Part shown: positions 34,132 to 49,338 of the stretch, piece by piece | How positions within the stretch are numbered: the stretch's first letter is position 1 | Layout: the number at the start of each line of letters is the position of its first letter | Assembly (NCBI GenBank): GCA_043771635.1 | Contig: JAYVHA010000019.1 | Span: 1,248 to 65,247 of the forward strand | Reading direction: 5' to 3' | DNA: 64,000 bases | Source: Candidatus Woesearchaeota archaeon | GTDB lineage: Archaea > Nanobdellota > Nanobdellia > Woesearchaeales > SKIA01 | Translations under genes and position numbers: made by a program | The notes under the pieces: model-generated | Seen by the model: the letters and a program-made list of their open reading frames with translations, nothing else | Told to the model about the DNA's origin: nothing | Database searches by the model: none

Positions 34132-37100
34132 TTATTTCTGCCTCGCATAAAATATTACTAGCGTTGCCCCGATAACAATTAGTGCAATTAGTAAACCACC
34201 AAGCGCCCAGTTTAGCGTACTCCAAGCTGCAAGTCCTTCAATTCCCGCAGGTTGTTGTAACTCCTGCCTACGTATAGTTTTTAGATACGCGCAGCCGTCA
34301 GTTGCAGCTTCTAGTAGCTCGGCAGCGCGCATATTGTCCCCACTAGCAATTGCGACTTCTGCTTGATCAACAAGTTCGGCAAGTTCTCCACACACAGGGT
34401 CTTGTGAGAGCAAGTCGCGAGCACTCGTAACTTTGGTGTTTACTGCGTCACCAGTGCTGGTGCGCTCTAAGCTGTTAAGAAATAATACAGCACTATCATT
34501 GAAACTCGGCTCTCCGACAACTGCAGTCACTATAATTTCAAATGTACCGCCGAGCTTATAATTCTTAATTGCGAGCGACGTGTTAAACGTCTCATCGGGC
34601 GCAAGCTCTTTTACAGTATTAGTAATAAACCCGAGTTCTACTTCAGCCTCAGATGTTGCAGTCAAGTCAATATCCTTAAGGGTCAAGTTTCCAGTATTCA
34701 CTAGTGCAATTGGAACGATAACAGTTGCATTTTCATACACTGTAAGCGGCTTCGGCACAATCAAGTTTATTGCGTATGGCTGGGGCCTTGGAATTGGCTT
34801 AATTACAACAGCACCGCCACCACCACCACCACCACCACCACCGCCAGAACTTGAACTCGAACTACTCGAGCTCTCCTCTTCTTCAGGATTATAGAAAATA
34901 GTGTAAGTAATAATATTGGAATAAAGACTGTAAGCACTATCCGCAGTAGTGGCGAGGTAAGTAAATGTAATACTGCCTGATGACGCAGGAGTTATTGTAA
35001 CGTCAGAGTCTACAAATGCTGCAGTAAAATATGCATTCGCTGATACAGAGTATACTAGCGTATTAATTTCGCTTCCATCAATAGCCAAGTTAGAGTCAAG
35101 ATCGTCATCAGGATCAATTATACTAAGTTCGTTGTTTAGTAGCGTAGTATCGTTAATTGTCCGGTTTCCGAGATTAGAAACGAGTATTGGGGCGCGTTTC
35201 ACGTTACGGACTGTGGTATTCCACATGAATGAATCATTAGCTAAAAGATTGTCTTCGACAACAGCCATTATTTCGTGTACACCTGCATCGAAGAAATCAA
35301 AACTTGCGGAATAGGCCGGGTTTGATGCAGATGGCGACGCAACAAGCATACCGTTCGAATAATATTTTACGGTCATGTTAGCAAGCACACTATCAGGATC
35401 TGTGAATGAAATATTGTAAACAACTGTAGTGTTTTCAGAGGCATTAATGAGCGTTATTGCGTTACTTGTAGTAACTATTGTGTTGTTTACTTGCGCCGAG
35501 CCATTGAGATAAGGACGAGCACCTGTAATAACAGGCGGAGCTGAACCGTTGACCACGGCGAACGTTACATTTTGACTCGTAAATGCTCCTAGCGCGTCCG
35601 TCACAGCGATATTAACTTCGTACGAGCCAATGTCTGCAAGTACAGGCGTAAATTGAATACGGCCTGTGTAAGCGTTTAATAGAGTAATATTGAAAAGGCC
35701 AGTATTTGGTCCAGCTATATCCGCTGTGAAGTTTATTGTGTCACCAATATTACGCTGATCAACATCAGTCATAATTACGTCCCAAGTTTTGCTTACATCT
35801 ATCACCACAGGCGCAGAAAGTGTAAGTACATTCGTGATATTGTCTCGGTTACTGTCAAAGAATGGCGCATCATTAGTATTGTTTACTTGAAGTGTGAAAA
35901 TCTGGGAATCACTAGCTCCCCATCGATCAGTTACAGTCAGTAGCAGAGAATAGTTCGATACCTCATTATTTGCATAGGTGTGATTCAACCTGCTAGTATT
36001 CACAGATAGCCAAGTTACATCAGCTAGCGAATCATTGAAAGAGAAAGTGAGATTTTCACCCGCATCATCATCAAGCGCCGCTAATTCGATCGTACAAGGC
36101 AGATCTTCTGCGCACGTCCTATTAGTTATCGGCACTAACACCGGCGCGGCGTTAGCATATACCGTAATGTTAAGTGTGCGCGTTACTGAAGCTAACGCGA
36201 TGTCTTGTGCAGTTATGCCGACTAATCGCCTCCCAACATCCCCAGCACCGGGTGTCGCCGTAATTAGGCCGCTGCTCGCTCCGACAGTGAATAGCGAATC
36301 ATTACTCGTGAAGGTTAGTGTATCACCCGCATAGGTTAGTTCGTCAACATCACTCGCATTTACAACATATGCGAATGCAATATCTTGCGCAGCACTTAAA
36401 GCACTAGCATTTTTTTGGCCTAAATAGTTCGGAGACTCAGCACTTATTTCAGCTATAATAGGGACATCGTTTGTGTTAGTAAGATTGAATGTTATATTAT
36501 AGCTAGTGGTGGAGCGGAAGACACCTGCTGCTGTATAGTCGGAGACAGAAAGCCTTACAGATCTACAAATGATATGATTATTCGTTAGAGTTACGTTTAT
36601 GATTCCGATAGCGCCAGTACTACTGTTCGAAGTAGTATTGACAGACCAAGGGTTCGTTATTGAGCAACCTGGACTGGCTACAGAAAAGAATAACTGATCC
36701 GCAGGATTAGTATCGTTTGCCAGTATAATATACTCGAATAAGGTACCTTGTGTACCATTTACTGCCGGAGTAGACGTGAATACAGAGGCATTGTTCGGCT
36801 CAGTAACTAGCACAGTAAATGTAGTAGTTGCATTCTTCATAGGGTTTGACGCTTGCCAAGCAACAATACTTACATTGTACAACCCAGCGTCGAGGCTAGT
36901 TGGATAACCTAGTGCGAAAGATACGTTCGCACTAAAATTACTCGTAGGCAACAGCGTTAAAGTTCCGTTTGATGTTATAGTGAAATTTAAAGGATCACTC
37001 TCTTCGTCTGAAGCAGTTATAGATAGACTGAAACCTTGTCCGGAAGTGACGTTTTGATTTCCAGGACTTATAATAATTGGAATGTCATCGAATTCAACGA

Positions 37101-37797
37101 CTTCATATACTATGTTCGAGCCACCATAAGTTTCACCATCAAACGCCAGAATCGCCATGGTGTGATTACCAACCTTACTTGCAGTAGGAGTTGCTGATAT
37201 ATCCCCATCATTGTCTATTGTAAATAATGAAGTGCCATTGTACAGGCTACTATTAAGATCACTTGATAAAAATAGCAGAATAGTGTCACCATCGGCGTCA
37301 GTTGCAGTAGCAGTAGCCGAATAAGTCTGGTCTTCAGTTAAAGACTGCAAGGTTGTAGGGAACGTAATTACGGGCGGAGAGTTAGAAATCAAGACTGCAG
37401 TGGCATTTTGCGCAACTGAAGCAGTAATATTAGACACTGTAGCCTCGCAGCGCCAATATTCACCTTTAGATGTACTTATAGGTTCTATTGAACCATTTAC
37501 TCCTGTGGCCGTTGCTACACCATTAGTGAGAGGCAGTGTTTCAGTGTCGCCAATCCAAAGTAAGTTATTCTGATACCACGAAATATTTGCAGTTAAGGTA
37601 CCATTTCCAGTTGCATTCACGATACAAGCCAATGTGCTGGCGGTGCCTGGCGAGGCAGGAGTAACACTTACGCTAACGATATTTAACGCGCGTACTTCTG
37701 GCATAAATAGCACAACACTTAGCGTAATTAAAAGTAAAGTTAACACAGTTTGCGAAGCAAAAGCTTCTCCGCTTGTACCAGTCTGCTTAGAAGTCAT
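34132..37797 (-). CDS. Giant (1221 aa) cell-surface glycoprotein with Ig-like/cadherin-like beta-sandwich repeats, a poly-Ser/Gly linker and a C-terminal TM anchor
   Basis: N-terminal signal/anchor. More than 50 N-x-S/T sequons. An S9G12 linker at 34800-34870. C-terminal hydrophobic helix followed by a basic tail (YARQK). Confidence 0.7.
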   Translation of the reverse strand: MTSKQTGTSGEAFASQTVLTLLLITLSVVLFMPEVRALNIVSVSVTPASPGTASTLACIVNATGNGTLTANISWYQNNLLWIGDTETLPLTNGVATATGVNGSIEPISTSKGEYWRCEATVSNITASVAQNATAVLISNSPPVITFPTTLQSLTEDQTYSATATATDADGDTILLFLSSDLNSSLYNGTSLFTIDNDGDISATPTASKVGNHTMAILAFDGETYGGSNIVYEVVEFDDIPIIISPGNQNVTSGQGFSLSITASDEESDPLNFTITSNGTLTLLPTSNFSANVSFALGYPTSLDAGLYNVSIVAWQASNPMKNATTTFTVLVTEPNNASVFTSTPAVNGTQGTLFEYIILANDTNPADQLFFSVASPGCSITNPWSVNTTSNSSTGAIGIINVTLTNNHIICRSVRLSVSDYTAAGVFRSTTSYNITFNLTNTNDVPIIAEISAESPNYLGQKNASALSAAQDIAFAYVVNASDVDELTYAGDTLTFTSNDSLFTVGASSGLITATPGAGDVGRRLVGITAQDIALASVTRTLNITVYANAAPVLVPITNRTCAEDLPCTIELAALDDDAGENLTFSFNDSLADVTWLSVNTSRLNHTYANNEVSNYSLLLTVTDRWGASDSQIFTLQVNNTNDAPFFDSNRDNITNVLTLSAPVVIDVSKTWDVIMTDVDQRNIGDTINFTADIAGPNTGLFNITLLNAYTGRIQFTPVLADIGSYEVNIAVTDALGAFTSQNVTFAVVNGSAPPVITGARPYLNGSAQVNNTIVTTSNAITLINASENTTVVYNISFTDPDSVLANMTVKYYSNGMLVASPSASNPAYSASFDFFDAGVHEIMAVVEDNLLANDSFMWNTTVRNVKRAPILVSNLGNRTINDTTLLNNELSIIDPDDDLDSNLAIDGSEINTLVYSVSANAYFTAAFVDSDVTITPASSGSITFTYLATTADSAYSLYSNIITYTIFYNPEEEESSSSSSSSSGGGGGGGGGGGAVVIKPIPRPQPYAINLIVPKPLTVYENATVIVPIALVNTGNLTLKDIDLTATSEAEVELGFITNTVKELAPDETFNTSLAIKNYKLGGTFEIIVTAVVGEPSFNDSAVLFLNSLERTSTGDAVNTKVTSARDLLSQDPVCGELAELVDQAEVAIASGDNMRAAELLEAATDGCAYLKTIRRQELQQPAGIEGLAAWSTLNWALGGLLIALIVIGATLVIFYARQK

Positions 37798-38259: not shown

Positions 38260-40434
38260 CTAAGGTTTCTTACTGCCTAGGCCAAGTCTAAGCTCATCAT
38301 AAACACGTGCAAGGTCATCATAAATTTCGCGCTGCTCCGCTAAAGTTGCTTTTGCGTACCATGATTCAAGCACTTGATAGAGCGCTTGGGCGAGCTCCTC
38401 TTTGTTGAACTGGATTGCGAGGTGCAATTGGTTAAGAAGCAAATAACCACGATCAAGCGCAGGAGTCTCTGCAGGAATGTCGCGTAGTTGCAAGTCCTGG
38501 TCTCGAGCACGTAAATCATCAACTGTGAGCACCGCTGTTTGATATACTAGTTCTCGCGTTTCTTGAATTAGAGAACGCAGTACAAGTTCATTCACTGGCA
38601 CGCCCGCAAATTCTAGAACATTTATACGGATAAAGAACTTTCGAAGTATCCGGGCTAAAAGCGGGTTCAAGCGATTAACATTTACCGCTTTAACTAATTC
38701 TTCATTTGTGAACTCGAACTCGAGTCCGAGTGACGCTTTGAAGTAGTCACGTATAATTCGCGCAAGCTCTTCTTGACTACGAATAATAGTCTGCGTACCG
38801 AGCCGCGCCTCTAACTCTGCAAGGCGACGAATAATTTCCTCCTTTGTTGCTGCAGCTAGCAGTATCTTTCTGTTGGTTCGTTGATGGCGTAGTAAAAATG
38901 CCATCAGAGCGCTTGCAATCTGACGTTTGAGAATTATTGCGAGTAAGAAAGCAACGGCTAGCGCTATTCCGCCGATGAGTAGCGCAGTAAACCAAGGGAA
39001 ACCTGCCGCAGGGAACTGCTCTTCAACGCAAGCCGCACAGAAAAGTCCACCGCAATCAATTTGCTCTTCCCCACCATTTCTTATTCCGTCGGAACAACTT
39101 GTACAAGGAGCGCAATCAGGCCCTCCACAGTCAAGCCCTTTTTCTTCACCATCCATTTTTCTGTTTGAACAAGTGTTGCACTGCTCGCAGAACGGACCGC
39201 CACAATCCACACCTTCTTCAAAACCATTTTGGATACCATCAGTGCACAATGTACAAGCAGAGCATACTGCGCCACCGCAGTCAACACCCGTTTCATCTTG
39301 ATTCAGTATACCGTCTGCACAGTTAGGCACGTACCCGCATGGGCGAACTTCCGTGCGCGTAACAGAGCCAGGACACTGCTTAGTATCAATACAAGAGCGC
39401 CAGGAAAAGCCCGCACGGTACTCATCAATACTAGGCGACGCACCAGGTGCAGGAGTGTATAATATATCCCCCCGCACACCTGTAATCACTATGTTTGCTG
39501 GATTTGCAGGCGAAACTCGAACGCTGCGCGCTACTTGACAAGCGCTCCAATCATAACAGAAGTAGTTCTCAAAACAAACAGGGTTTGTTGAAGTGCGTGA
39601 GGCGCCACCACCGCCACCAGCTCCACCACCACCGCCTCCACCACCGCCGCTTGAGGACGAGCTAGAGGAACCACCAGAACTGCCTGACGACGGCGGCGGA
39701 CAAGTTACGTTTAACTTTACAGTATTACTTATTGCACTTAGATTAGTCGGATCTGTTGCATTGAATACAACGCTTTCTACACCGCACCAACCGGACGCAG
39801 GTGTAAGCGTTACTTCTCCAGCAGTGAAAGCAATACCAATATTAGAATTACCAGTCACAGAGTATGCTAAAATATCAGCATTCGGATCAATAAAATAATT
39901 ATCGAGATCAAACGCTACAAGCACAGTTCCATACTGCCAGGTTTGATTTGGAATATTTTGTGCGAGAAACGGAGTATTCAAATTTTGGGAAATGGTGAAT
40001 GTATTCAAGTTTGTAGTTATAGCGTTTGTACAGCCCGAACCATCGTCCACAGTAAGTAAAAGAGTGTAAGTGCCAATCTGAGATGAATTTGGCGTAAACG
40101 CAAATGTATGAGTTGAGCTGGAGAATAACGCGAGTCCCGTAGCTGGACCGGATAGCGCAGCAGATGAGAAAGCAAAACTTACTTGGACTGGATCAGAGGC
40201 AGTCATTGTGCATGAGTAAGGAGTATCCACATAGGCGTTCATAGTACAAGAAGATAGGTTTAGCGTCGGCGGCGTGTTTACACAAATAGTCAATTGCCCA
40301 TTAGATGTAACTCTACCAGTAGTAGACGCATCACGTACTAGGATATACGCATTCTGCGCCAAGACTAGAACAACAAGAATAAGGAATGCAATCCACAAAT
40401 ACTTTGGATGCTTACGCACGGAGCACCACCTCAC
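38260..40434 (-). CDS. Single-pass surface protein. From N- to C-terminus: glycosylated ectodomain, poly-Ser/Gly linker, 4 Cys-rich 25-aa repeats, TM helix, ~230-aa cytoplasmic helical tail.
   Basis: Signal peptide. Linker SSGGSSSSSSSGGGGGGGGGAGGGGG. Repeat consensus C-x-DG-x2-N-x2-E-x-G-x-DCGG-x2-C-x2-C, four copies. TM segment FPWFTALLIGGIALAVAFLLAIIL. Confidence 0.65.
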   Translation of the reverse strand: MRWCSVRKHPKYLWIAFLILVVLVLAQNAYILVRDASTTGRVTSNGQLTICVNTPPTLNLSSCTMNAYVDTPYSCTMTASDPVQVSFAFSSAALSGPATGLALFSSSTHTFAFTPNSSQIGTYTLLLTVDDGSGCTNAITTNLNTFTISQNLNTPFLAQNIPNQTWQYGTVLVAFDLDNYFIDPNADILAYSVTGNSNIGIAFTAGEVTLTPASGWCGVESVVFNATDPTNLSAISNTVKLNVTCPPPSSGSSGGSSSSSSSGGGGGGGGGAGGGGGASRTSTNPVCFENYFCYDWSACQVARSVRVSPANPANIVITGVRGDILYTPAPGASPSIDEYRAGFSWRSCIDTKQCPGSVTRTEVRPCGYVPNCADGILNQDETGVDCGGAVCSACTLCTDGIQNGFEEGVDCGGPFCEQCNTCSNRKMDGEEKGLDCGGPDCAPCTSCSDGIRNGGEEQIDCGGLFCAACVEEQFPAAGFPWFTALLIGGIALAVAFLLAIILKRQIASALMAFLLRHQRTNRKILLAAATKEEIIRRLAELEARLGTQTIIRSQEELARIIRDYFKASLGLEFEFTNEELVKAVNVNRLNPLLARILRKFFIRINVLEFAGVPVNELVLRSLIQETRELVYQTAVLTVDDLRARDQDLQLRDIPAETPALDRGYLLLNQLHLAIQFNKEELAQALYQVLESWYAKATLAEQREIYDDLARVYDELRLGLGSKKP

Positions 40435-40852
40435 GTGTAAAGTCTACATCCCAATGCCCGAGAAACGCCAAAGCATCAAGTTCACGATCCATCGGCACAA
40501 AAAATGCAGGTCTACCCAGCTTTTGTCCACCCCATTCGGGCAACAAACCTATGCGACCTTGCACTCCCATTAACGCGTGGCTAAACACCTTCTTCCGACC
40601 AGGGTTCAAACGAGCAAGTAAATAAGTGATTAGCGACCAGCTCCCGACCCCAGCCATTTTTCTGTATGATTGCCCATATCGATGCGAGTAGCCCCGCTCT
40701 AAAAACTCTCGCACGCGCGTATGAAGCTGTGATGCAGGCAGACTAATGCAACCTGGCACCCGCGTGGCACCCGCAGTAATAGCGAAATGAGTCTCACCAA
40801 CAGTAACTATGTCGATGACGTCAACCTGCTTCAGTAAACCACTGAATTGCAC
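40412..40852 (-). CDS. Hypothetical protein with Cys...His-x-Asp residues, possibly a papain-fold/transglutaminase-like cysteine peptidase
   Basis: ORF of 146 aa with a conserved-looking VPGCISLP and C-terminal GHWDVDF. The assignment is speculative. Confidence 0.25.
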   Translation of the reverse strand: MQFSGLLKQVDVIDIVTVGETHFAITAGATRVPGCISLPASQLHTRVREFLERGYSHRYGQSYRKMAGVGSWSLITYLLARLNPGRKKVFSHALMGVQGRIGLLPEWGGQKLGRPAFFVPMDRELDALAFLGHWDVDFTREVVLRA

Positions 40853-40983
40853 AATACTCGCAGCTTCGCGACCTTTTTATTAGTATCGAATACGCAAAAG
40901 AGATTGACAAGAAGTTACCCACTTTAAAGCTGAAAAATATCAACTATTTACGATAAAGTGATTAAACAAGTTATTAGGATAAT

Positions 40984-41418
40984 TCATTTATTAGGCGAAT
41001 AAGGCACTACATACAAAGTACCCTGGTAAGTGCCAAGCGGAGCATCGAGCGACGGACGCAAACTAATGTTTACCTCAGCAGGTAAAGTAGTAATACTGGG
41101 CTGTATTATGATCCACTCACTTCCTTTACCTCTTGCTAACACAAGTACTTGACGCTTGGCTTGCGCTTCTTGCGTCATGCTGCCAATGCCCGCCTCGACT
41201 TGCAAAGTACGCCAAGAGGCTCCTCCAGGACCTAGCTGACCAAGCCTAAATACATCTTTTCTAGTATCGACACCTGGTACGTCCGCAATTACAAATAGAT
41301 AGGGTATAGACTGAGTTCCGTCAGGAAATTTTTCATTACTTGCAGTCAAGATATACACGGAGGCAGCACTTATAGCACCAACAAAAAGAACTAGAAAAAT
41401 AACAGAGATCAAACGCAT
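40984..41418 (-). CDS. Small secreted protein
   Basis: N-terminal signal peptide (MRLISVIFLVLFVGAISAAS), 144 aa. Confidence 0.4.
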   Translation of the reverse strand: MRLISVIFLVLFVGAISAASVYILTASNEKFPDGTQSIPYLFVIADVPGVDTRKDVFRLGQLGPGGASWRTLQVEAGIGSMTQEAQAKRQVLVLARGKGSEWIIIQPSITTLPAEVNISLRPSLDAPLGTYQGTLYVVPYSPNK

Positions 41419-41422
41419 AATA

Positions 41423-42841
41423 TCATTTCCTCGTGCTTTGGGGACTTGGCTGTGGTGGCGCCCGAGGACTGTCAGGAATTACAGCGTTTGGCGCAGGCGA
41501 GGCAGACTTAGTAGTTTCAGTGTCTGAACCTGGACCCCCGCCTTCATCTTTGCGCCTATGGTAGCGCGAGATTGCAAACAAGATTACCGACGCAACTAGA
41601 ATTATTGCGATTATACCAACAATCAAGTCAGCAGCTGAGAGTTCAACTACAGAGTCCGCTCCAGCAGGAGCTTCATAAGTTGGCGGCTTAGGCGTTTCAT
41701 TAAACACAGCAATCGGCAACAACGCAGTTTTAGAGCCGCCAGGGAAATAAACTGTAACCGTTGCTAATGCCTGCCCTGGCAGTATAGAACGATCAGTTTC
41801 CCAGAAATTAGTCATAGCGCCAGGTTGAAACGGGTCAATAGCAATTGAAGGTGTCGTACTTGGAGTTGCTCCGAGAACTACAGTAGAGTAAACATTATCA
41901 AGACGTTGATTCCACAAACTCTCCACGTGCACAGTGTAGCGGTTTACAGGCTTATCCAAATAGAGCGGTCCTTCTAGTGCAACAATATCTACATCTTGAG
42001 TGCCTACTGCAAACGAACCATTTGATTCGGCAATAAGATTGTTGTATTCTAGTTTCGCCTGCAACTGATATTTACCTGGCGAATACCCGCTTGATGGAAT
42101 TAATTTGGTGAAATCCTTATTACTACTTCCCGCTATTTCCATCCCATCAAAAGTAAACACATCTTGTAACTCTCCTGCAGCACTTACAATGCGAACTGTT
42201 GCCCGCCCAGAAGTAATAGCCTCTGCACCAAGATTATTTACAAGTAATTTTAGCTGAGTATTCTGTCCTTGAGGAACACTAGGCGCACCAGCAGTAAGCT
42301 CAGCATATTGACCAGGGTATGGTTTCCAAAGAATTATTCTATACCCAACTTCAGTTCTAACTGCGAATGTACCGCCAGTGTCGTCCGGAGCACGTTCTGC
42401 AAAAAATACAAAAGTTGTATGAAAACCAGGAGTTGCAAGTTCTGCAGGGGCTACAAATGCTAACGGAACTGACGCGGTACCACGAGCAGGAATTCGAATA
42501 GGTTGCTTTACCGCAACGGAATTTTTTAATACACCTTCAACACGAACATCAACATCTACAGGCCCATCATTATTGTTAATTAGAGTAACAGTTAAGTCAC
42601 TGCGCTGATTAGGTTCAAAAGTAACATCGACGCGAGGGGGACTCACACCCATAGCCAGTACAGTAGGAAGCGAAGCGATCATGCTCAAAAGCAGCAAAGA
42701 ATAAACTAAGACCTTTGACGAGCTAACCAATTTTGTATTCGCTCTTGTCATGTTTGAAAAAAGCACATCATCGTTTAAAACGGTATTCTTATTACTATTA
42801 GGTTTAGCAATAAATAATAAATTTCTTGGAAGTAGGCTCAC
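41423..42841 (-). CDS. Surface protein with beta-sandwich (CARDB/DUF11-like) repeats and a C-terminal TM anchor with a ~50-aa cytoplasmic tail
   Basis: Signal peptide (likely start at the Met near 42751). C-terminal IVGIIAIILVASVILFAI followed by RYHRRKDEGGG. Confidence 0.5.
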   Translation of the reverse strand: MSLLPRNLLFIAKPNSNKNTVLNDDVLFSNMTRANTKLVSSSKVLVYSLLLLSMIASLPTVLAMGVSPPRVDVTFEPNQRSDLTVTLINNNDGPVDVDVRVEGVLKNSVAVKQPIRIPARGTASVPLAFVAPAELATPGFHTTFVFFAERAPDDTGGTFAVRTEVGYRIILWKPYPGQYAELTAGAPSVPQGQNTQLKLLVNNLGAEAITSGRATVRIVSAAGELQDVFTFDGMEIAGSSNKDFTKLIPSSGYSPGKYQLQAKLEYNNLIAESNGSFAVGTQDVDIVALEGPLYLDKPVNRYTVHVESLWNQRLDNVYSTVVLGATPSTTPSIAIDPFQPGAMTNFWETDRSILPGQALATVTVYFPGGSKTALLPIAVFNETPKPPTYEAPAGADSVVELSAADLIVGIIAIILVASVILFAISRYHRRKDEGGGPGSDTETTKSASPAPNAVIPDSPRAPPQPSPQSTRK

Positions 42842-42853
42842 TTCTCACTCACC

Positions 42854-43462
42854 TTAGATTGCAGAGAAGGTGAGAGTTGAGATGCCAGTGCAACCACCAG
42901 AGAAGCCTACAGCGTCTTGCGGTATAGTTACATTAACATACAACTGAAATGCTCCGGAAGTTGGCACGATTTGCGGACAAGCAAGGCGAGTTGTGCTGTC
43001 TAAGGTAGTCCACGAACTTACGTTTGTACCGTTGCAGCTAGTCGTTATGAACTGAAGTGTAGGGTTTGTGCCACCGATTAAGGTCGCAGCACTGCAACTG
43101 CTTGTTACGTTTACGGACGCGTTAACATTGCCTACATTTTGTACTCTAATAAACCGAGGCGTTACGTTATCACCAGTGCAATTCGCGCCAAACACTCCGT
43201 CACATGCAACTGCATCGTTTGTTGCACAAGTATAATTTGTACCTGATCTAGGAGTACAAGTTCCGAATGCAAGAGTCTTGTTTCCAGCATCTACTTGAAT
43301 GTTAAGTGCACTTGCAACAGTAAGTGACACGTTACCCGTGTCTGTTGTTGCGCGACCTGTAAGACCAGGCAATGCGTCGATACGGATTAAAAAAGATGCG
43401 GAAACTACTAAGAGTGCACCAATTACTAACATTGCTAATGCACTGTTTGAAAGTTCGCTCAT
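42854..43462 (-). CDS. Pilin-like or adhesin-like secreted glycoprotein, paralog 1
   Basis: N-terminal hydrophobic anchor MSELSNSALAMLVIGALLVV. Many NxS/T sequons. About 76% identical (151/199 aligned positions) to the adjacent paralog. Confidence 0.5.
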   Translation of the reverse strand: MSELSNSALAMLVIGALLVVSASFLIRIDALPGLTGRATTDTGNVSLTVASALNIQVDAGNKTLAFGTCTPRSGTNYTCATNDAVACDGVFGANCTGDNVTPRFIRVQNVGNVNASVNVTSSCSAATLIGGTNPTLQFITTSCNGTNVSSWTTLDSTTRLACPQIVPTSGAFQLYVNVTIPQDAVGFSGGCTGISTLTFSAI

Positions 43463-43483
43463 GGTATGTATCCTCTTGTAATT

Positions 43484-44101
43484 CTATATTGCTGTGAAGG
43501 TTAACGTTGACGTTCCTGTACAACCACCCGAGGAGCCTACTGCGTCCTGCGGGATTGTAACGTTCGAAAATAGTCTGAATGCTCCAGAAGTCGGCGCAAT
43601 TCTTGCACAAGCAAGAGTGGTTGTTGTACCTAGCGTAGTCCAAGTTGTAACGTTGGTCGCATTGCATTCAGTAGTCTGGAATTGAAGTTGAGGATTAGTT
43701 CCGCCAATTAAGGTTGCTGCAGTACAGGAGCTTGTTACGTTGACTGAGGCGTTGACGTTACCGACATTAACTACGCGGATGAATCGAATGCTTCCATTAT
43801 CACCAGTGCAGTTTGCACCAAACACTGCGTCACATGCAACTGCATCGTTTGAGGCGCAAGTATAGTTAGAGCCTGCACGAGGAGTACAAGTACCAAAGGC
43901 GATAGTGCTGTTACCTGGGTCTACTTGGATGTTAAGTGCGCTTGCGATAGACAACGAAACGTTTCCAGTATCAGAAGTTGCCCTCCCGGTAAGTCCGAAT
44001 GTTGTTCCATCACTATTGATAGTATACACCGTTGTGCCAACAGTAACAACCAGAGCGGCAAAAACGAGAAGTGCGAGAGTACTATTGGAAATTTCTGCCA
44101 T
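43484..44101 (-). CDS. Pilin-like or adhesin-like secreted glycoprotein, paralog 2
   Basis: MAEISNSTLALLVFAALVVTV anchor. Conserved GLTGRAT(S/T)DTGNVSL and CTPR(A/S)G(S/T)NYTCA(S/T)NDAVACD blocks. Confidence 0.5.
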   Translation of the reverse strand: MAEISNSTLALLVFAALVVTVGTTVYTINSDGTTFGLTGRATSDTGNVSLSIASALNIQVDPGNSTIAFGTCTPRAGSNYTCASNDAVACDAVFGANCTGDNGSIRFIRVVNVGNVNASVNVTSSCTAATLIGGTNPQLQFQTTECNATNVTTWTTLGTTTTLACARIAPTSGAFRLFSNVTIPQDAVGSSGGCTGTSTLTFTAI

Positions 44102-44103
44102 TG

Positions 44104-44316
44104 CTATTGTCCACCGGGAACGTTTAACTGTAAAGTGCCATCGACACCAGCGCGTTCACCAACTTGTAAATTAACTGTGCTATCTGCCACGCTTTGCGCG
44201 GGAGACGCAGACCTAGGGAGAGAATCATGCGCCATGAGCGAATACGTTCCGAAACCGCTTACTGCGATAACAAGAACAAGGAGAATCGCGACGACATTGC
44301 GGGAAACCTCAACCAT
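44104..44316 (-). CDS. 70-aa protein with an N-terminal hydrophobic anchor (pilin-like class III signal candidate)
   Basis: MVEVSRNVVAILLVLVIAVSGFG. The start lies 3 nt after the upstream stop. Confidence 0.35.
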   Translation of the reverse strand: MVEVSRNVVAILLVLVIAVSGFGTYSLMAHDSLPRSASPAQSVADSTVNLQVGERAGVDGTLQLNVPGGQ

Positions 44317-44435
44317 TGAATAGTTTCCAGTTTAGCCAGTTTATAAAAGTTTCTAAATAAAGTGACTCGAACAAGGAGTGACAAATTAAGATTTGAAAAA
44401 TGGTTTTAAGATATAAAGATAATTTCTAAAATATT

Positions 44436-44828
44436 TTATTGTACGGGCGCAGGCACAGTGAAGTTAGCAGGCCTCGTTAATACTTCTTGAACACAGGCGA
44501 CTTCTTCGCATTGTGATGCTACAAAAGTAAGGTTGATGAATGAAAGCGGCACAGGAGTAACAGTACCCTCGATGTTTACTGAACACGAGCGGTTTTCTGC
44601 ACTGTCACCTGCGGCGACTGAGGCGCAATTCTTCGCAACCCAAGCAACTGGATCAACATATTTTCCACAAACTACTCGACTACACTCCCATTTATTGTTG
44701 GCGCTATCTGCACCAGCAATTTTAGCATCCCTACTTGACATGCTGAACGCAGTGAATGCGAGTGCAACTGCGAGAATTGCAATAAGTATGTACATAGTCA
44801 CGAAATGAGAGGATTTATTGCGTTCCAT
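44436..44828 (-). CDS. 130-aa secreted or anchored protein
   Basis: A charged N-terminus followed by a hydrophobic helix (MERNKSSHFVTMYILIAILAVALAF), then Cys-containing segments. Confidence 0.35.
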   Translation of the reverse strand: MERNKSSHFVTMYILIAILAVALAFTAFSMSSRDAKIAGADSANNKWECSRVVCGKYVDPVAWVAKNCASVAAGDSAENRSCSVNIEGTVTPVPLSFINLTFVASQCEEVACVQEVLTRPANFTVPAPVQ

Positions 44829-44829
44829 G

Positions 44830-46047
44830 TTAATTCCTATCCTTGCGAGTGTAGAATCGGTATATAAAATATGCTGCTAATATAGTAAGTAGAATTACCA
44901 GCACAATAGTAAATGCTCTGTTTGATGTAGCGCCTGGTTGAACCTCTACTGGACGTTCAATCGAATCTACACCTAGAATGATAGGGCGGGTTTCTTCTGA
45001 TACTTTATCTGCATAAATTAGCTTGGCTCTTAAAACCGCAGGACCAGCAGTAGCGCTTTTTGTCTCTAGAAACCCTGTAAAACGACCCTCGGCTAGAGGC
45101 ATAATTGTTTGTGAGGCGGAAGTTGCAGTACCTATAGTACTATTCTGCTCTAAAATAAACATAGCCTGTACTGGCAGCGGCGCACCCCACTCGTTTAATA
45201 CATCCACAGAAACGCGAAATGGATCACCCAGTCTAAATTCACCAAAATTAATTCCTAGTATTTTAACATTAAGCGCACCAACAATAATTTCGCTTGTTAC
45301 GCGTAGTTCTGTGGAACCATACGGAACTGACGCGACCGCAGTATACACACCAACAGCGCGAGGATTCCAAGATGCAACTAGATCGCGACTTTCACCTGGT
45401 AAAATTGTTACTTGAGCAAATTCCTGTCGTACCCCATCAAGCAAGATGGAAGATTGGGTGCTAATTGATTGAGTACCAACATTAAGTAAGTGTAGCGTGA
45501 TTAGTACTTCGCTCCCAACTATCCCGCTTGAACTCAGGAGCTCTCCAGTCAGAAACGCACCTTCTTTCGCTGTTTGAACTCGGATAACGTGCATAACCGC
45601 AGATGAAGCAGCCACTGTACCTGCACCAACTGCGCGCGACTCGAATAAAATGCCCGACTCGGAAGTACCAGGCACCGTGTTAGCAGGCAGACGTATTTGC
45701 ACTGGAATTGCACGTGATTCACCGGGCGAAATAACTACTGAAGGGGGCACATCAAGAGCGCCGCCAATAGCTAAAGCGCCTGTCGGCGAAATAGTAATTT
45801 CGAGAGCAGACGACTCATCGTTTCTGACTAATACATCATAGCGTACGACTTCGTTTGCACTGAAAGCTATTGTTTTACTTGCAGGACTTGCTGTGAGGGC
45901 AGACGCTGCACTAAGTGAACTTACAACCAAGATAACTAATAACATAACTAACTTAGCTCGAGAATTGGAATAATTCATTCTAAACTCGCTCCTAGAACAG
46001 TCAAGGTAGTATTTTTTGCACCTTGAGTCTCGCCTTGTGGAACCCAT
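44830..46047 (-). CDS. Surface protein with a beta-sandwich domain and a C-terminal TM anchor. The likely start is the Met near 45978.
   Basis: Signal peptide MNYSNSRAKLVMLLVILVVSSLSAASA. C-terminal FTIVLVILLTILAAYFIY followed by RFYTRKDRN. Confidence 0.5.
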   Translation of the reverse strand: MGSTRRDSRCKKYYLDCSRSEFRMNYSNSRAKLVMLLVILVVSSLSAASALTASPASKTIAFSANEVVRYDVLVRNDESSALEITISPTGALAIGGALDVPPSVVISPGESRAIPVQIRLPANTVPGTSESGILFESRAVGAGTVAASSAVMHVIRVQTAKEGAFLTGELLSSSGIVGSEVLITLHLLNVGTQSISTQSSILLDGVRQEFAQVTILPGESRDLVASWNPRAVGVYTAVASVPYGSTELRVTSEIIVGALNVKILGINFGEFRLGDPFRVSVDVLNEWGAPLPVQAMFILEQNSTIGTATSASQTIMPLAEGRFTGFLETKSATAGPAVLRAKLIYADKVSEETRPIILGVDSIERPVEVQPGATSNRAFTIVLVILLTILAAYFIYRFYTRKDRN

Positions 46048-47198
46048 ACTTTAAGTTCGAATTCGCGAAGCGCTCCGAGCGTTAGGTTACTTGTCAAACT
46101 AGTGTATCCGCTGGTTACGTTTATCCACGCGCTGCTATTTTCATCAGCATACTGGAAATAACTCGTGCTAAGGGCTTGGCTCACCCATAATGCAGCGTTT
46201 GCTTTGGCAGACGTAAGTACATCAACATTACCCGAGTTATTGTATACAAGAGGAGCAGGCGAGCTCGATAAAGTATCATTAGTACGGTTGGCTGTTGGGT
46301 CACTCGGAACAAGCGAGCCGAAATCAGTTGCGCCAGTGGTAAAGGTTATTCCAACGACACTTGGTATGCTAAAGTTAAATTGCGTTGCGTACGCACTGCA
46401 AGTATTACTTGTGTCGCAAGCGCGCACAGTCCAATTATACGCGCGGTCAACGCACAACTTGTCAATGCTCAAGTAGTATGCGGAACTACTGTTCTTTAGT
46501 GGAATAGCTGCGCATCCGCTTGGACTAGTAATATTCCACTGGTAAGTTACCGCATCACCATCAGGATCAGAGACATTTGTCCAGTTGAACGTCGGATAAC
46601 GTGATGAAACTGTGTAGTTATTATTTAGCGGGATTAGGAGCGTTGGTACTGACGGAGCGCTGTTTGATACGCTACCGCACACCTTTCGCGTGTACGCGTC
46701 ACAATCTCCAATATGGGCGTTTGTACTGTTACTGCCTTCAGCAGTGTTCGCGAGCGAGAGCATGCAACCGTATCCTGTCGAGCAAGCCGTATTGTTATAC
46801 TGAATCGACACAGTAGCTAGAGCTGCGGAAAAACACATACTAGTATTGTAGGTACTTTCGTTTGCTTGTTGTGCATGTGCATTGTCAGTGTCGGCAAGGC
46901 GCAGCCAAGTAGTCGCCGCGCCACCGCACGAAGTATTAAACGCACTTACTGCTACTGTAGTTGAATTGCAACATAAACTGTTCGCATATGTACCAACAGA
47001 AACATTTTGTCCGTGCGAATTATTCCATCCGCCAGTATCATTCGCCACACCTAGAAGTTTAATGGTGCTTGCACCACAAGAGCTACTCGCTACAAAGCTG
47101 CAGTTCAAATAACCGAGCGCGCTCGGTACGCTAGACAACAACAGCAAGGTTGCTACAACAAGTATACCTATCGGCCACATGCTAGCGGCAGAGTTCAT
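45975..47198 (-). CDS. Secreted Cys-rich, heavily N-glycosylated protein with a PTFNWTNVSDPDGDAVTYQW Ig/FN3-like repeat
   Basis: Signal peptide MWPIGILVVATLLLLSSVPSALG. About 40 NxS/T sequons. Many Cys residues. Confidence 0.5.
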   Translation of the reverse strand: MNSAASMWPIGILVVATLLLLSSVPSALGYLNCSFVASSSCGASTIKLLGVANDTGGWNNSHGQNVSVGTYANSLCCNSTTVAVSAFNTSCGGAATTWLRLADTDNAHAQQANESTYNTSMCFSAALATVSIQYNNTACSTGYGCMLSLANTAEGSNSTNAHIGDCDAYTRKVCGSVSNSAPSVPTLLIPLNNNYTVSSRYPTFNWTNVSDPDGDAVTYQWNITSPSGCAAIPLKNSSSAYYLSIDKLCVDRAYNWTVRACDTSNTCSAYATQFNFSIPSVVGITFTTGATDFGSLVPSDPTANRTNDTLSSSPAPLVYNNSGNVDVLTSAKANAALWVSQALSTSYFQYADENSSAWINVTSGYTSLTSNLTLGALREFELKVWVPQGETQGAKNTTLTVLGASLE

Positions 47199-48871
47199 TG
47201 CAGCGTTGCTCCACTAAGGAAACTGCCGGCAAGAAGTACGTCTCCTACTTGCGTTATTACGGCAGCATCAGTACCAGCTGCCGTGCGTATAACAAAGTCT
47301 CCACTTGTAGTTCGCTGCGGCGTTGTTCGCGCAGTTAACTTTCCTGCTGAGCGAAGTGCACCTTGTTCGTCGATTGATAGTGTGACAATTCCAGCACCGT
47401 CTTTTATGAGCCAGCCGCTCACTCCAGGTGTCGTACTAAATGTAGCGGCGCCGGTAACAACCATGGTCCCATATTTGTCAATTGCAGCTGCTGCACTGCC
47501 GTCTGCAGCTTCCACAACAAAGCGCCCACGACCACTGCGCAATAGCCACGCTGCACCTTGAGTGCCAGCTATGCATACACTATCAGTATATTCTGCGCCT
47601 GGCTGGTAAACAGTGCCATCTGCGACGCAGGCTGCTTGTGACGCAGCGCAGATTCCTCCTGTTAGTTCACCGTGGTACTGGCTTGTTAGACAAACGCCAC
47701 TTCCACACTGCGATCCTAAAGTACATGCCGCGCCGAGCGCAACTGTAACGCCAGGAATTACTTCCGGAGTATCTGGAACAGGAGCGGGTACAACTGGAAT
47801 TACAACAGGGGGCGCAACAGGCGGCACCGCAGTTATGGTAGTATTATTTGATTCATTTGTGCTATTAGTTGTTGCAACAATAGGAGGCGCAGGTGTAACG
47901 GGTGGCGTCACAACTGGTGGAGTCGTTACTGGATCAACTATTTCGTTGCTTGATGAATTAGTCTCGTTCGATGAATTAGTCTCAGTTGTTTCATTTTCAA
48001 GAGCGTGAGAAATTGGTTCTCCCCGCGTGCCGTATACAACGCGTTCAATGTAGAACTCTACAGCACCGCTCAGTTCAATATCTAGCGCCGCGCTTGCATT
48101 GAGCCCGGGCAGAGAGCAGGTTTCGACGCAAGCATTTAGAAATGCCACAGACTCGTCAGATTGCGCATTCGGCGCAGTTTCTGTGACTTCAGGAGTGTCA
48201 GTTTGTGGCGACGCAGGCAATGTTACTGCTCCAGGTTCACTTGGAGACAGCGTTTCAATTACAGTATCATCAGTAGTCACTCTTCCAGTTAGTCCGCTTG
48301 CACCCTCTTTCTCACTGTCGTATGATGCCACGAGCAACCGAGCATCCCCTAAACGCAAATATACTTTCGCCACCCCATCTCCGCTTGCAGTACCGTCGAT
48401 TCGCAACGACGAGAGAGGATCAGTAATTGAAAGTGGAACCGTTTCACTGCCAGTATAAACGCTGTCAAGTGGCAGCGCATAGAACGATTCATCTTGGCCA
48501 AAAGTGAACAAACCCGTTATAGCTCCAAAGTTTAATGCGATTAAAGCAGCAAACACAATTACAATTGCAAAAGGTACTGCTTTTCGGAGTCTAGGGTGTG
48601 ACGGCGGCTGCGCAGCAAGCATTGCCTCAGTACTTGCAAGATGCTCGTTCAAATCACGGATGACGTCTTTAGGATCTTTACCCGCGTACTCCCGCGCAAC
48701 GATCTGCTTCGCCATTTCAGGCGTTAATTTACCAGACGCTACTTCGCGATCAATTTCAGCTGTAAATTCGTTTACTGCGTCACGCTCTTTCTCGAACTTC
48801 TCGATAAGTTTTTCGAGTTCAGCTCTCATAAGCGCACCACTTTCTTTATAGCACGTTGATACGTGGTCCAA
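47195..48871 (-). CDS. Type II membrane protein: ~95-aa cytoplasmic coiled-coil N-terminus, one TM helix, Pro/Val/Thr-rich stalk, Cys/Gly-rich C-terminal ectodomain
   Basis: TM segment AVPFAIVIVFAALIALNFGAITGLF. The stalk has PPVVTPPVTPAPPIV...PPVAPPVVIPVVPAPVPDTPEV. 4-nt overlap with the downstream gene. Confidence 0.5.
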   Translation of the reverse strand: MDHVSTCYKESGALMRAELEKLIEKFEKERDAVNEFTAEIDREVASGKLTPEMAKQIVAREYAGKDPKDVIRDLNEHLASTEAMLAAQPPSHPRLRKAVPFAIVIVFAALIALNFGAITGLFTFGQDESFYALPLDSVYTGSETVPLSITDPLSSLRIDGTASGDGVAKVYLRLGDARLLVASYDSEKEGASGLTGRVTTDDTVIETLSPSEPGAVTLPASPQTDTPEVTETAPNAQSDESVAFLNACVETCSLPGLNASAALDIELSGAVEFYIERVVYGTRGEPISHALENETTETNSSNETNSSSNEIVDPVTTPPVVTPPVTPAPPIVATTNSTNESNNTTITAVPPVAPPVVIPVVPAPVPDTPEVIPGVTVALGAACTLGSQCGSGVCLTSQYHGELTGGICAASQAACVADGTVYQPGAEYTDSVCIAGTQGAAWLLRSGRGRFVVEAADGSAAAAIDKYGTMVVTGAATFSTTPGVSGWLIKDGAGIVTLSIDEQGALRSAGKLTARTTPQRTTSGDFVIRTAAGTDAAVITQVGDVLLAGSFLSGATLQ

Positions 48872-49116
48872 ACAGTGCGATCATCACGCTGCAGCATCAC
48901 AGCAATCTGACTATAAGTCAAACTATGCTCTTCTTTTAGATAACGGACTATTGCTTCAAGTGCAGAGAGTTCTCTGTCCTTCAGAACTTCGATTGGGATA
49001 GCTATCGGTAACGCTCGAATGTCTATAACATGAGTTTTACGATTAATGACCATCCTTACCCTGTGAGTACCCACACTGTAAGTAATTAAAAAGGTGATTG
49101 TTGGAGTTGATAACAA
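48826..49116 (-). CDS. Small HTH transcriptional regulator (sigma-70 region-4 / LuxR-like helix-turn-helix) at the head of the surface-protein operon
   Basis: LSALEAIVRYLKEEHSLTYSQIAVMLQRDDRTVWTTYQRAIKK fits the region-4 HTH pattern. The likely start is the internal Met at 49053. Confidence 0.45.
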   Translation of the reverse strand: MLSTPTITFLITYSVGTHRVRMVINRKTHVIDIRALPIAIPIEVLKDRELSALEAIVRYLKEEHSLTYSQIAVMLQRDDRTVWTTYQRAIKKVVRL

Positions 49117-49189
49117 ATAATTATTACAATAATTAGGACTATTTACAAACGCATACTTAGATAGGCTGATTTTAGAAGTGAATTTAGAC

Positions 49190-49261
49190 CGTCCCCTGCC
49201 GGGATCGAACCGGCGACCTTTCGATTAACAGTCGAACGCTCTACCGCTGAGCTAAGGGGAC
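49190..49261 (-). tRNA. tRNA-Asn (anticodon GTT)
   Basis: Hand fold. Acceptor GTCCCCT/AGGGGAC. D-stem GCTC/GAGC. Anticodon stem TTCGA/TCGAA with loop CTGTTAA. T-arm GCCGG-TTCGATC-CCGGC. Confidence 0.85.
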
Positions 49262-49264
49262 TGA

Positions 49265-49338
49265 TGGACCCTCGGTGATTTGAACACCGGACCTCTCGAT
49301 TATCAGTCGAGTGCTCTACCAGGCTAAGCTAAGGGACC
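49265..49338 (-). tRNA. tRNA-Ile (anticodon GAT)
   Basis: Hand fold. D-stem GCTT/GAGC. Anticodon stem CTCGA/TCGAG with loop CTGATAA. T-arm CGGTG-TTCAAAT-CACCG. The acceptor has one T.T mismatch at 3-70 as read. Confidence 0.7.

Follow-up and report, generated by a model that had tools for sequence, protein, structure and literature searches.

A conserved, unannotated surface-apparatus locus of DPANN-type archaea as a candidate for an adhesive, donor-strand-type fibre

In a 64-kb stretch of DNA from a Candidatus Woesearchaeota archaeon (the window, to which all locus coordinates refer), we examined a run of cell-surface genes on the minus strand, the strand of every locus gene below unless stated otherwise, and found it to belong to a real, widely conserved and unannotated surface-apparatus locus of DPANN-type archaea. 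Its core encodes two small immunoglobulin-like (Ig) subunits (g205 and g202), a membrane mini-protein (g70), a secreted adhesin (g407) and two beta-sandwich proteins with a C-terminal transmembrane (TM) anchor (g405 and g472, here termed Ig3-TM A and B), with the two modules of the subunit recurring separately in the adhesin and in the mini-protein. All of the evidence on the surface locus is computational. The reading that we favour, although we put it at somewhat less than an even chance, is that its genes specify an adhesive fibre or short stalk on the cell surface, exported by Sec, not of the type IV kind and following the logic of donor-strand fimbriae. The locus is a strong candidate for how DPANN-type archaea attach to hosts or surfaces; a host-attachment role and an episymbiotic lifestyle are inferences.

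The initial annotation of this DNA had described twelve co-oriented minus-strand genes between 49116 and 38260, and indeed twelve back-to-back open reading frames (ORFs) span this interval and agree with the public gene calls on identical contigs, some starts being slightly shorter in the latter (called lengths are 75 amino acids (aa) for the helix-turn-helix (HTH) protein, 544 aa for g558, 371 or 382 aa for g405, 419 or 472 aa for g472 and 719 aa for g724). The synteny comparison that it had recommended revealed a core order that recurs in ten sequenced loci, namely the window and nine others (designated by L numbers below), while the same gene order is present in two further contigs known from JGI gene calls only, without DNA. 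This core consists of a large variable adhesin, Ig3-TM A (~380-430 aa), a mini-protein of ~70 aa, one or two subunits (~205-220 aa), Ig3-TM B (~380-470 aa) and a protein termed TM-Ig (~135-175 aa). A ~125-aa Cys-rich protein stands between Ig3-TM A and the mini-protein in one sub-lineage only, and the sub-lineage of the window has as extras a ~150-aa, probably cytoplasmic protein (g146), a ~715-aa bitopic Big_9 protein (g724), ribbon-helix-helix (RHH) mini-genes, an adhesin of ~1200 aa, a divergent ~190-aa gene (g192) and MoxR-DUF58-VWA genes; L009 carries the minimal module alone, i.e. mini-protein, subunit, Ig3-TM and TM-Ig. Subunit identity across the loci ranges from ~57% down to profile-only similarity. 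A metagenome scan for the subunit gave four loci, and a subunit-profile scan of GTDB genomes gave no match. In scans of the locus proteins, no Pfam or NCBIfam family covered the core subunit and mini-protein families, and searches of all twelve proteins against Pfam, NCBIfam and PDB sequences returned only generic Ig/CARDB/Big_9 and weak HTH matches. A full-text search found no literature describing the locus or tying donor-strand fibres to DPANN or Woesearchaeota. The earlier suggestion of an uncharacterised, dedicated surface system has held up. That these are unrelated surface-protein genes which merely lie side by side and build no common apparatus is hardly credible: most members lack a recognisable family and promoter-like gaps split the region, as such an account would allow, but the order is kept in the ten sequenced loci and the two gene-call contigs, down to profile-only similarity, the adhesin, subunit and mini-protein have domains in common, and translational coupling is conserved.

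The two subunits of the window, g205 and g202, are tandem paralogs with 73% identity (BLASTP, E 3e-105) that also appear as DNA repeat D1, and two subunit copies are likewise found in L004, L006, L010 and one of the JGI contigs. The g205 protein is laid out as an N-terminal helix, a TGxA motif, a beta-strand and a Cys-rich eight-strand sandwich with predicted glycosylation sequons. By an exhaustive profile search, the family comprises 1526 representatives at 50% identity, and 835 of these reach E<=1e-10 (a word-indexed search found just 34 relatives), and one distant member is annotated as from a Candidatus Woesearchaeota metagenome-assembled genome. Together with g205, 49 diverse members gave no consistent Pfam family match, and neither the subunit profile nor its sequence gave a significant PDB sequence match or any NCBIfam match. 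In an alignment of 219 family members, the two most conserved segments are the first 30 residues, with the consensus M-[DE]-I-S-N-K-T-L-A-x-L-L-V-A-A-I-V-V-S-L-G-G-T, and residues 38-50 (T-G-x-A ... G-x-V-x-L-x-I), these N-terminal segments reaching 2.3-2.5 bits per position versus 1.5-1.8 for the Ig domain. Under the -3/-1 rule, the TGxA motif would be acceptable to signal peptidase I, and the helix could conceivably be removed by cleavage there. An AlphaFold2 (AF2) monomer model of g205, with a predicted local distance difference test score (pLDDT) of 84, consists of a helix (residues 6-30), a low-confidence region (31-57) and an eight-strand sandwich. When this model was compared with the PDB using Foldseek, 27 of the top 28 matches were donor-strand pilins, with CS20, FimG, TLP-1a, CfaB, Csu, TasA, PapE/A, AbpA and Saci_0406 among the top matches; DUF1102, CanX and Tafi pilins are among the fold matches as well, the DUF1102 Hyper2 tube at rank 42. 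Given their weak scores (E 3e-3 to 0.1, TM-scores 0.3-0.5), we take the pilin-type matches as a faint, if consistent, hint at the subunit fold and not as a demonstration of it.

A conserved hydrophobic N-terminal helix with a nearby acidic residue, a more variable beta-sandwich head and a helix shared with a second small protein are also what one would expect if g205/g202 and g70 were leaderless type-IV-pilin-like proteins with a helical core, served by a type IV pilus machine encoded elsewhere in the genome. We consider this very improbable. The consensus of the 219-member alignment contains no class III signal (a basic leader with [KR]-[GA]), the N-terminus being M-[DE]-I-S-N-K; 190 of the 219 members have four to six residues before the invariant Asn, and no basic G/A leader was present in the 70 N-termini of non-commonest length that were read. 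As initially noted, a secretion ATPase, a platform protein and a prepilin peptidase are missing; none of these, nor any signal peptidase, was found in the Pfam scan of the 56 larger ORFs of the window and five sub-fragments, and the first three were likewise missing from 11 related gene tables. In the g205 model, moreover, the helix and the sandwich lie ~27 residues of low confidence apart, and what the large adhesins have in common with the subunit is the Ig domain and not the helix, which points to assembly through the Ig domain.

The strongest evidence is that the two modules of the subunit are also encoded apart. In g407, a cleavable signal peptide is followed by an N-terminal part that is rich in Cys and in sequons and contains a PKD-like domain, and then by a C-terminal Ig domain (residues 274-405) homologous to that of g205 (hhalign probability 94.8%, E 5e-8). 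Using a hidden Markov model (HMM) of the Ig domain only, built from the 219 subunit-family members, we found that the adhesin encoded upstream of Ig3-TM A ends in this domain in all seven of the seven loci, with E-values of 1.1e-8 for the window, 2.3e-8 for L006 (1104 aa), 1.5e-9 for L012 (6974 aa, LamG/beta-helix), 3.2e-10 for L013 (2225 aa), 1.6e-8 for L014 (2203 aa), 2.9e-9 for L011 (3078 aa) and 1.7e-7 for L015 (755 aa, DUF285). These seven adhesins have ordinary signal peptides and gave no match to an HMM of the N-module, which comprises helix, TGxA and strand; the adhesin is variable across loci, with LamG, beta-helix, DUF285 or Cys-rich domains. The mini-protein g70 is the N-module of the g205 family alone, with the conserved polar start, the TM helix and a short beta-strand-like tail, and has neither an Ig domain nor the TGxA motif. 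It is related to the subunit family both as a single sequence (hhalign E 4e-5) and by comparison of the two family profiles (94.9% probability, E 4e-8), while TM segments of g130 and g724, used as negative controls, stayed below 1% probability. The N-module HMM matches the mini-protein beside the subunit gene in 10 of 10 loci, those of L013 and L014 at E 0.07-0.08, below conventional significance, and two mini-protein ORFs of related loci had been missed by public gene-calling pipelines. By hhalign, no relation to the subunit domain or the N-module was found in g558, g130, g144, g724, g1221 or the Ig3-TM family. A link between g144 and the subunits in jackhmmer was discarded, as it ran through over-extended ORFs. 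The locus encodes three forms, adhesin plus Ig, N-module plus Ig, and N-module alone, and this is, by analogy, the tip, shaft and terminator grammar of donor-strand fimbriae.

The Ig3-TM proteins g405 and g472 are collinear paralogs with 22% identity. In g405, a signal peptide precedes beta-sandwich domains with weak Pfam FixG_C/CARDB matches and a C-terminal TM anchor; g472 has a signal peptide, three beta-sandwiches, of which the first appears MSP/PapD-like and the second is CARDB, and a C-terminal TM segment with a basic tail. In the AF2 model of g472 (pLDDT 81), a long domain-1 hairpin flanks a low-confidence loop. Fold comparison with this protein gave scores of 13.3 for WxLIP of Enterococcus, 12.1 for MSP/VAP domains, 12.0 for the CARDB domain of PF1109 and 10.0-10.7 for PapD-like chaperones, with many other sandwiches scoring in the same range, and the models weakly favour MSP/PapD/CARDB/WxLIP-like sandwiches. 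Across the loci, A and B form distinct, positionally fixed orthologous groups: Ig3-TM A follows the adhesin in seven loci, its orthologs grouping together, and B always follows the subunit gene(s). The gene for A overlaps the adhesin stop by 4 nucleotides (nt) in 5 of 6 loci. This pairing of A with the adhesin and of B with the subunit suggests that the two are dedicated partners of these proteins.

Signal peptides or N-terminal anchors had been expected nearly throughout the twelve proteins, and in a hydropathy scan ten of them do have an N-terminal hydrophobic segment, the exceptions being the HTH protein and g146. The predicted C-terminal TM anchors were located in g405 and g472, along with a second TM segment in g724, and the beta-sandwich content is borne out by Pfam CARDB, FixG_C and Big_9 matches and by the AlphaFold models. 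The claim of dense glycosylation sequons (N-x-S/T) applies to only part of the set. Against a background of 0.48 sequons per 100 aa in 24 other window proteins, g407 has 5.9, g205 5.4, g202 5.0, g130 3.1 and g558 1.6, whereas g405, g472, g144 and g724 (0.5-0.8) differ from it little or not at all, and no sequon occurs in the HTH protein, g70 or g146; the downstream adhesin g1221 has 4.4. In g205, g407 and g1221 the observed density is more than twice the shuffled expectation. The same division is seen across loci, where the values are 5.2 for adhesins, 4.0 for subunits (n=219), 5.8 for g1221 orthologs, 1.1 for TM-Ig proteins, 0.5-0.8 for Ig3-TM proteins and 0 for mini-proteins, and this predicted split fits exposed structural parts versus membrane-proximal assembly or anchor parts. 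A separation into sequon-heavy exposed proteins and membrane-anchored beta-sandwich stalks, in a locus so widely conserved in the lineage, could also be imagined for the main S-layer-like coat of the cell, with glycosylated g205/g407/g1221 as a canopy and the Ig3-TM proteins as SlaB-like stalks. We regard this as improbable, since no S-layer family in Pfam or NCBIfam was matched, a lone Ig domain of 17 kDa would make an unusual lattice protein, several regulators lie in the locus, and the combination of a hypervariable LamG/beta-helix/DUF285 adhesin bearing the subunit domain with a strand-only mini-protein suggests ligand binding. The profile searches assigned none of the proteins to a described pilus or S-layer system, and the fold matches were weak. 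The initial judgement that this does not look like a type IV pilus or archaellum locus, or like a classical S-layer, agrees with the lack of a class III leader, of machinery genes among the ORFs scanned and of an S-layer family match.

In the fibre that we propose, the g407-type adhesin would be the distal tip and g205/g202 the shaft, the N-terminal segment of each unit (TGxA and amphipathic strand) docking onto the Ig domain of the preceding one, while g70 would give the last strand and, through its uncleaved helix, anchor the structure in the membrane. The g405 and g472 proteins would act as membrane-tethered holders or chaperones with an MSP/PapD-like first domain, for the adhesin and the subunit, respectively, and so take the place of the bacterial periplasmic chaperone; an usher would not be needed because there is no outer membrane. 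As additional membrane-anchored adhesins, g724 and g1221 would belong to the same apparatus, which the HTH and the two RHH proteins would regulate. The apparatus would probably fasten the archaeon to host cells or to surfaces, and the exchangeable tip adhesin would determine its specificity. The most specific form of this proposal is that DPANN archaea have their own chaperone-assisted donor-strand-exchange fimbria, in which two tethered PapD/MSP-like proteins replace chaperone and usher, a strand-only mini-protein provides the anchor, and giant exchangeable adhesins (LamG, beta-helix, DUF285) set host specificity; we place it on the unlikely side.

Several observations weigh against the proposed fibre. 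The AF2 monomer of g205 already has eight strands, leaving an open acceptor groove hypothetical, and the N-terminal helix is the best-conserved part of the family, as one would expect of a helix that is kept more than of a signal peptide that is cut off. Cleavage at the TGxA motif is hypothetical as well, the linker between helix and TGxA varies from 0 to ~14 residues across the family, and no dedicated signal peptidase is present in any locus. The strand of the mini-protein has only modest similarity to that of its cognate subunit, and covariation between the two is not significant (permutation fraction 0.097); four of eight mini-protein/subunit strand pairs beat shuffles at <=0.07, which we do not use as evidence. 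The C-terminal alignment of the adhesins partly covers the proposed donor-strand region, such that the exchanged element is ambiguous, and we know of no filament reported for these organisms. Because the helix is conserved, the linker is variable and there is no dedicated peptidase, an anchored, non-filamentous display complex stays a serious rival, and we allot it a minor but real share of the probability. Here, g205/g202, g70 and g130 would be held in the membrane by their N-terminal helices and g405/g472 by their C-terminal ones, and an Ig-domain platform would non-covalently hold the secreted adhesin through its g205-like C-terminal domain, according to the logic of WxL/Csc systems. Such a complex would account for an N-terminal helix that is the best-conserved part of 219 members and common to the mini-protein, which argues that it is retained and functional, for an adhesin whose signal peptide is cleavable, which lacks its own anchor and whose gene is translationally coupled to that of Ig3-TM A, and for the absence of a signal peptidase gene from the locus. 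However, it offers no role for a strand-only mini-protein or for tandem subunits with an invariant TGxA and amphipathic strand, the Foldseek matches are dominated by polymerising donor-strand pilins, and there is no sequence match to DUF916, DUF3324 or WxL.

To our knowledge, no attachment structure is known at the gene level for Woesearchaeota-type lineages. How DPANN archaea recognise and hold their hosts is a long-standing open question, for which this locus offers a concrete, widespread and testable candidate; as its assembly core is conserved and its proposed tip adhesin hypervariable, sequence could reveal the host range, and the subunit and mini-protein families could yield new Pfam/NCBIfam-type models. 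If the most specific form of the proposal holds, the fimbria would be the main means by which a large radiation of uncultivated archaea attaches to its hosts, and an independent or very ancient instance of the chaperone-usher principle in a single-membrane cell. The fibre would also form a fifth family beside ABP, threads, Tafi and cannulae among the non-type-IV archaeal filaments discovered in recent years, the first with candidate dedicated chaperones, and would bear on whether chaperone-aided donor-strand assembly is a bacterial invention.

The features of the locus and its surroundings are collected in Table 1. The initial annotation had described an 11-kb island bounded by a pair of tRNA genes. 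The tRNA-Ile/tRNA-Asn pair is indeed present, and it also precedes the orthologous locus L006 in another genome; it is a conserved neighbour upstream of the locus, not an integration site. The island and its boundary did not survive, as the locus runs past 38260 through two RHH mini-genes and a 1221-aa adhesin down to 34132; it is at least 15 kb long and vertically conserved across divergent genomes. Its GC content (0.44-0.49) is like that of the flanks, with no compositional deviation, a repeat search found no att-like repeats, including direct repeats of the tRNA 3' end, and no integrase was present among the window ORFs scanned with Pfam. A mobile genomic island at the tRNA genes was rejected on these grounds and because the tRNA pair is kept at L006. 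The ATGA-type 4-nt overlaps reported earlier are found at three junctions (HTH/g558, g558/g407 and g407/g405). A single transcript from 49116 to 38260, as earlier envisaged, is not what the sequence suggests: AT-rich gaps with TATA-like boxes precede g70, g146 and the RHH pair (the box TTTATAAA lies ~25 nt upstream of the g70 ATG), and because of these there are probably at least four promoters or transcription units, i.e. several operons. Elsewhere in the window, archaeal housekeeping genes encode an A-type ATP synthase, Cdc48, GatD/GatE, CDP-archaeol synthase (CarS) and a topoisomerase, with the ATP synthase, GatD/GatE and CarS as archaeal markers. Overall, the assignment of the locus as a dedicated cell-surface gene cluster of an archaeon is supported.

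Table 1. Positions, strand and supporting evidence of the locus genes and neighbouring features in the window
Feature	Position	Strand	Evidence
tRNA-Ile(GAT)	49265-49338	-	ARAGORN and Rfam
tRNA-Asn(GTT)	49190-49261	-	ARAGORN and Rfam
Small HTH regulator, probable start ATG 49053, 75 aa	48826..49116	-	Pfam
g558, type II membrane protein, lineage-specific	47195..48871	-	hydropathy, synteny
g407, secreted two-part adhesin, proposed tip adhesin	45975..47198	-	hhalign, Ig-only HMM
g405, Ig3-TM protein A, probable start 45978, 382 aa	44830..46047	-	Pfam, synteny
g130, small N-terminally anchored Cys-rich surface protein, sub-lineage accessory	44436..44828	-	hydropathy, synteny
g70, membrane mini-protein, proposed anchor/terminator	44104..44316	-	hhalign, N-module HMM
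g205, core Ig-fold subunit, proposed major (shaft) subunit	43484..44101	-	family profile, AF2, fold search
g202, tandem paralog of g205, second subunit	42854..43462	-	BLASTP, DNA repeat D1
g472, Ig3-TM protein B, probable start 42751, 442 aa	41423..42841	-	AF2, fold comparison
g144, small N-terminally anchored single-Ig protein (TM-Ig), universal core	40984..41418	-	synteny
g146, sub-lineage accessory, overlaps g724 start	40412..40852	-	synteny
g724, bitopic adhesin-like protein	38260..40434	-	Pfam Big_9 E 1e-9, TM scan
RHH mini-gene 1, 39 aa, GTG start	37916-38035	-	Pfam HicB/ParD/RHH_10/ParG
RHH mini-gene 2, 41 aa	37794-37919	-	Pfam HicB/ParD/RHH_10/ParG
g1221, cadherin/Big_9/PKD-repeat adhesin	34132..37797	-	Pfam Big_9 and PKD_4
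g192, 192 aa, paralog of g724 cytoplasmic tail	33486-34064	+	iterative search
MoxR AAA+ (AAA_3)	32261-33370	-	Pfam
DUF58	31354-32253	-	Pfam
VWA-BatA	30392-31369	-	Pfam

The first gene had been described as a sigma-70 region-4-like HTH protein, and it matches Pfam Sigma70_r4_2 (PF08281) at E 1.3e-5, its 25.1 bits falling just under the gathering cut-off of 25.7, so a sigma-70 region 4 or LuxR-like fold is a reasonable assignment; homologs are present in L006 and, in two copies, in L011. The next gene product, g558, combines a ~93-aa cytoplasmic helical N-terminus and a TM segment (residues 94-125) with a ~430-aa Thr/Pro-rich ectodomain, and its gene overlaps both neighbours by 4 nt. It has no Pfam match; an ortholog is found in L006 and a 520-aa gene at the same position in one JGI contig. 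Orthologs of g130, whose N-terminus is unrelated to the g205 N-module, are found in L006, L010, L012 and L015. The g144 gene, a candidate for a minor subunit or an assembly factor, has orthologs directly after Ig3-TM B in nine other loci; eight are complete, and that of L006 is truncated where this locus ends. In the distant loci L013 (12289-13350) and L014 (12318-13397), the TM-Ig gene is followed immediately by one for a protein of ~355 aa. In L013 this protein starts with the subunit N-module (E 9e-5), joined to a C-terminal part of another kind, and the L014 gene gave no N-module match. From its sequence, this protein appears to be an additional minor-subunit type. The L013 contig, putatively archaeal, also encodes a GGDEF protein.

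Four of the remaining genes (g146, g724, g1221 and g192) have orthologs in L004, L010, L012 and L015. The g146 protein, without a TM segment, gave no Pfam, NCBIfam or PDB match, and, judged by eye, its conserved core (…YD…K..F.H.L.G…W.G.K.G…F.VP…) resembles the beta-alpha-beta pattern of Cas2/PaaX-type domains. In g724, the N-terminal TM segment bears a TGRV motif and is followed by Big_9 Ig domains, a Gly/Ser linker and four CGGxxCxxC repeats; beyond a second TM segment lies a ~210-aa cytoplasmic helical tail. The repeats, of the form G-[IV/L]-D-C-G-G-x-x-C-x-x-C, lie at 39010-39567 (-) behind the poly-Gly/Ser linker, have no Pfam match and are also present in the L004 ortholog. The two RHH mini-genes are ATGA-coupled to each other and to g1221, downstream of a ~220-nt AT-rich, promoter-like gap; one or two ORFs of 39-41 aa occupy this position in L010, L012, L015 and two JGI contigs, with weak RHH matches in L012 and L015. 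The sequon-dense g1221 has a Ser/Gly linker and a C-terminal TM anchor. The relation of g192 to the g724 tail (38263-38889, -) was found by iterative search, plain BLASTP being negative. In this sub-lineage, the MoxR gene occupies the position behind the locus in five further contigs as well. The MoxR-DUF58-VWA operon was not counted as core, as it is a conserved neighbour within one sub-lineage only; a role in the surface apparatus, for example in the maturation of VWA or Ig proteins, is conceivable.

Elsewhere in the window, the gene at 49483-51111 (+) encodes a Ski2/Hel308-like helicase with Helicase_C, an archaeal domain 4 and HHH_5, and no DEAD/RecA1 domain match; its ortholog next to L015 (527 aa) has the same domain set, and the helicase may be split or N-terminally divergent. 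A 161-aa protein with an N-terminal anchor (MENSNSNQWLIALVAIVAVVSIV...) is encoded between the helicase gene and a kinase gene at 51144-51629 (-); it has no family match and only a very weak match to the N-module HMM (E 0.15). An N-acetylmuramoyl-L-alanine amidase (Amidase_2) is encoded at 63080-63913 (-), a peptidoglycan hydrolase in an archaeal genome that is compatible with interaction with, or predation on, bacteria. Finally, the gene at 13393-13842 (-) encodes a SET-domain protein with the lysine methyltransferase fold (E 1.5e-25).

The locus has precedents in kind among donor-strand and chaperone-usher fibres and among archaeal Tafi, ABP and thread loci. Archaeal type IV pili and archaella also have subunits with a conserved N-terminal hydrophobic helix and a beta-sandwich, and here too the helix is common to several proteins of the locus, but the class III signal peptide, ATPase, platform protein and peptidase are missing and a long linker follows the helix. 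In the WxL/Csc systems of Firmicutes, too, one cluster encodes a large adhesin along with a small surface protein and, as the holder of both, a protein of tandem Ig domains with a C-terminal TM segment (PMC10599100). A strand-insertion contact has been predicted between WxL and WxLIP, which has the architecture DUF916-DUF3324-TM (PMC10599100). The present locus differs in having no WxL domain, no peptidoglycan and three sandwiches instead of two, and WxL systems are not filaments. In TasA-TapA-SipW, AbpA/AbpB and the Sulfolobus threads, beta-rich subunits are Sec-exported and polymerise through an N-terminal donor strand with no ATPase, and accessory proteins (TapA, AbpB and Saci_0405) give a strand to nucleate or cap the fibre (PMC9674648, PMC9245690, PMC9715654). 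The thread subunits are heavily N-glycosylated (PMC9715654), and the ABP operon includes genes for an HTH regulator and for TM proteins (PMC9245690). The locus resembles these systems in its small beta-rich subunits, putative strand-supplying accessory protein, regulator and lack of an ATPase. However, Pfam gave no PF12389 (TasA/camelysin/AbpA) match for g205 or 49 diverse family members, the Foldseek matches to the TasA fibre (8aur, E 0.018) and AbpA (7ueg, E 0.036, TM ~0.3) are in a marginal range (E 0.018-0.04), the modelled sandwich is of the ASH/PapD type and not a jelly-roll, and the conserved N-terminal helix is a different feature. Tafi (TafA-G), the archaeal Tat-fimbriae, likewise form a non-type-IV filament with tandem small beta-sandwich subunits and a small transcription regulator (PMC11821415). 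Its adhesin TafC shares the subunit domain and carries LamG, and TafF is a membrane-anchored terminator (PMC11821415); the taf-like DUF1102 clusters and the Pyrodictium cannulae and Hyper2 tubes come into the same comparison (PMC11821415; 10.1101/2024.12.30.630787). None of the archaeal non-type-IV filaments (bundling pili, threads, Tafi and cannulae) is similar to the locus in sequence. Here, there is no TafD two-domain signal peptidase, TafG/DUF5305, Tat motif or DUF1102 sequence match, and the locus has none of the SipW/TafD peptidase, DUF5305, PF12389 or DUF1102 markers of archaeal non-type-IV filaments. The pilin-like domain is N-terminal in TafC but C-terminal in the present adhesins, and Tafi have no described counterpart of the Ig3-TM proteins or of the strand-only mini-protein.

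Chaperone-usher pili (type 1, P, Csu and CFA/I), whose pilins are the best Foldseek matches of the subunit model, share no sequence similarity with the locus, and the resemblance could be convergent, donor-strand exchange being only proposed here. They also differ from it in several respects, as no usher domain is present in any locus, the candidate chaperones are two dedicated paralogs with three sandwiches and a C-terminal TM tether, and the subunits start with a strongly conserved TM helix. Yet the plan is alike: one or two small Ig-fold subunits, the presumed shaft, are conserved in an N-terminal segment and in a C-terminal strand, there is a candidate terminator or anchor, and accessory proteins with a putative MSP/PapD-like domain are encoded beside their presumed clients. 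As in FimH and PapG, the C-terminal domain of the adhesin is a pilin-type Ig domain without an N-terminal extension, and this two-domain arrangement of a tip adhesin was found in 7 of 7 adhesins, each with the subunit Ig domain at its C-terminus and no N-module match. Functionally, the nearest counterpart of the locus is the chaperone-usher pathway of bacteria, stripped of its usher and with candidate chaperones tethered to the membrane.

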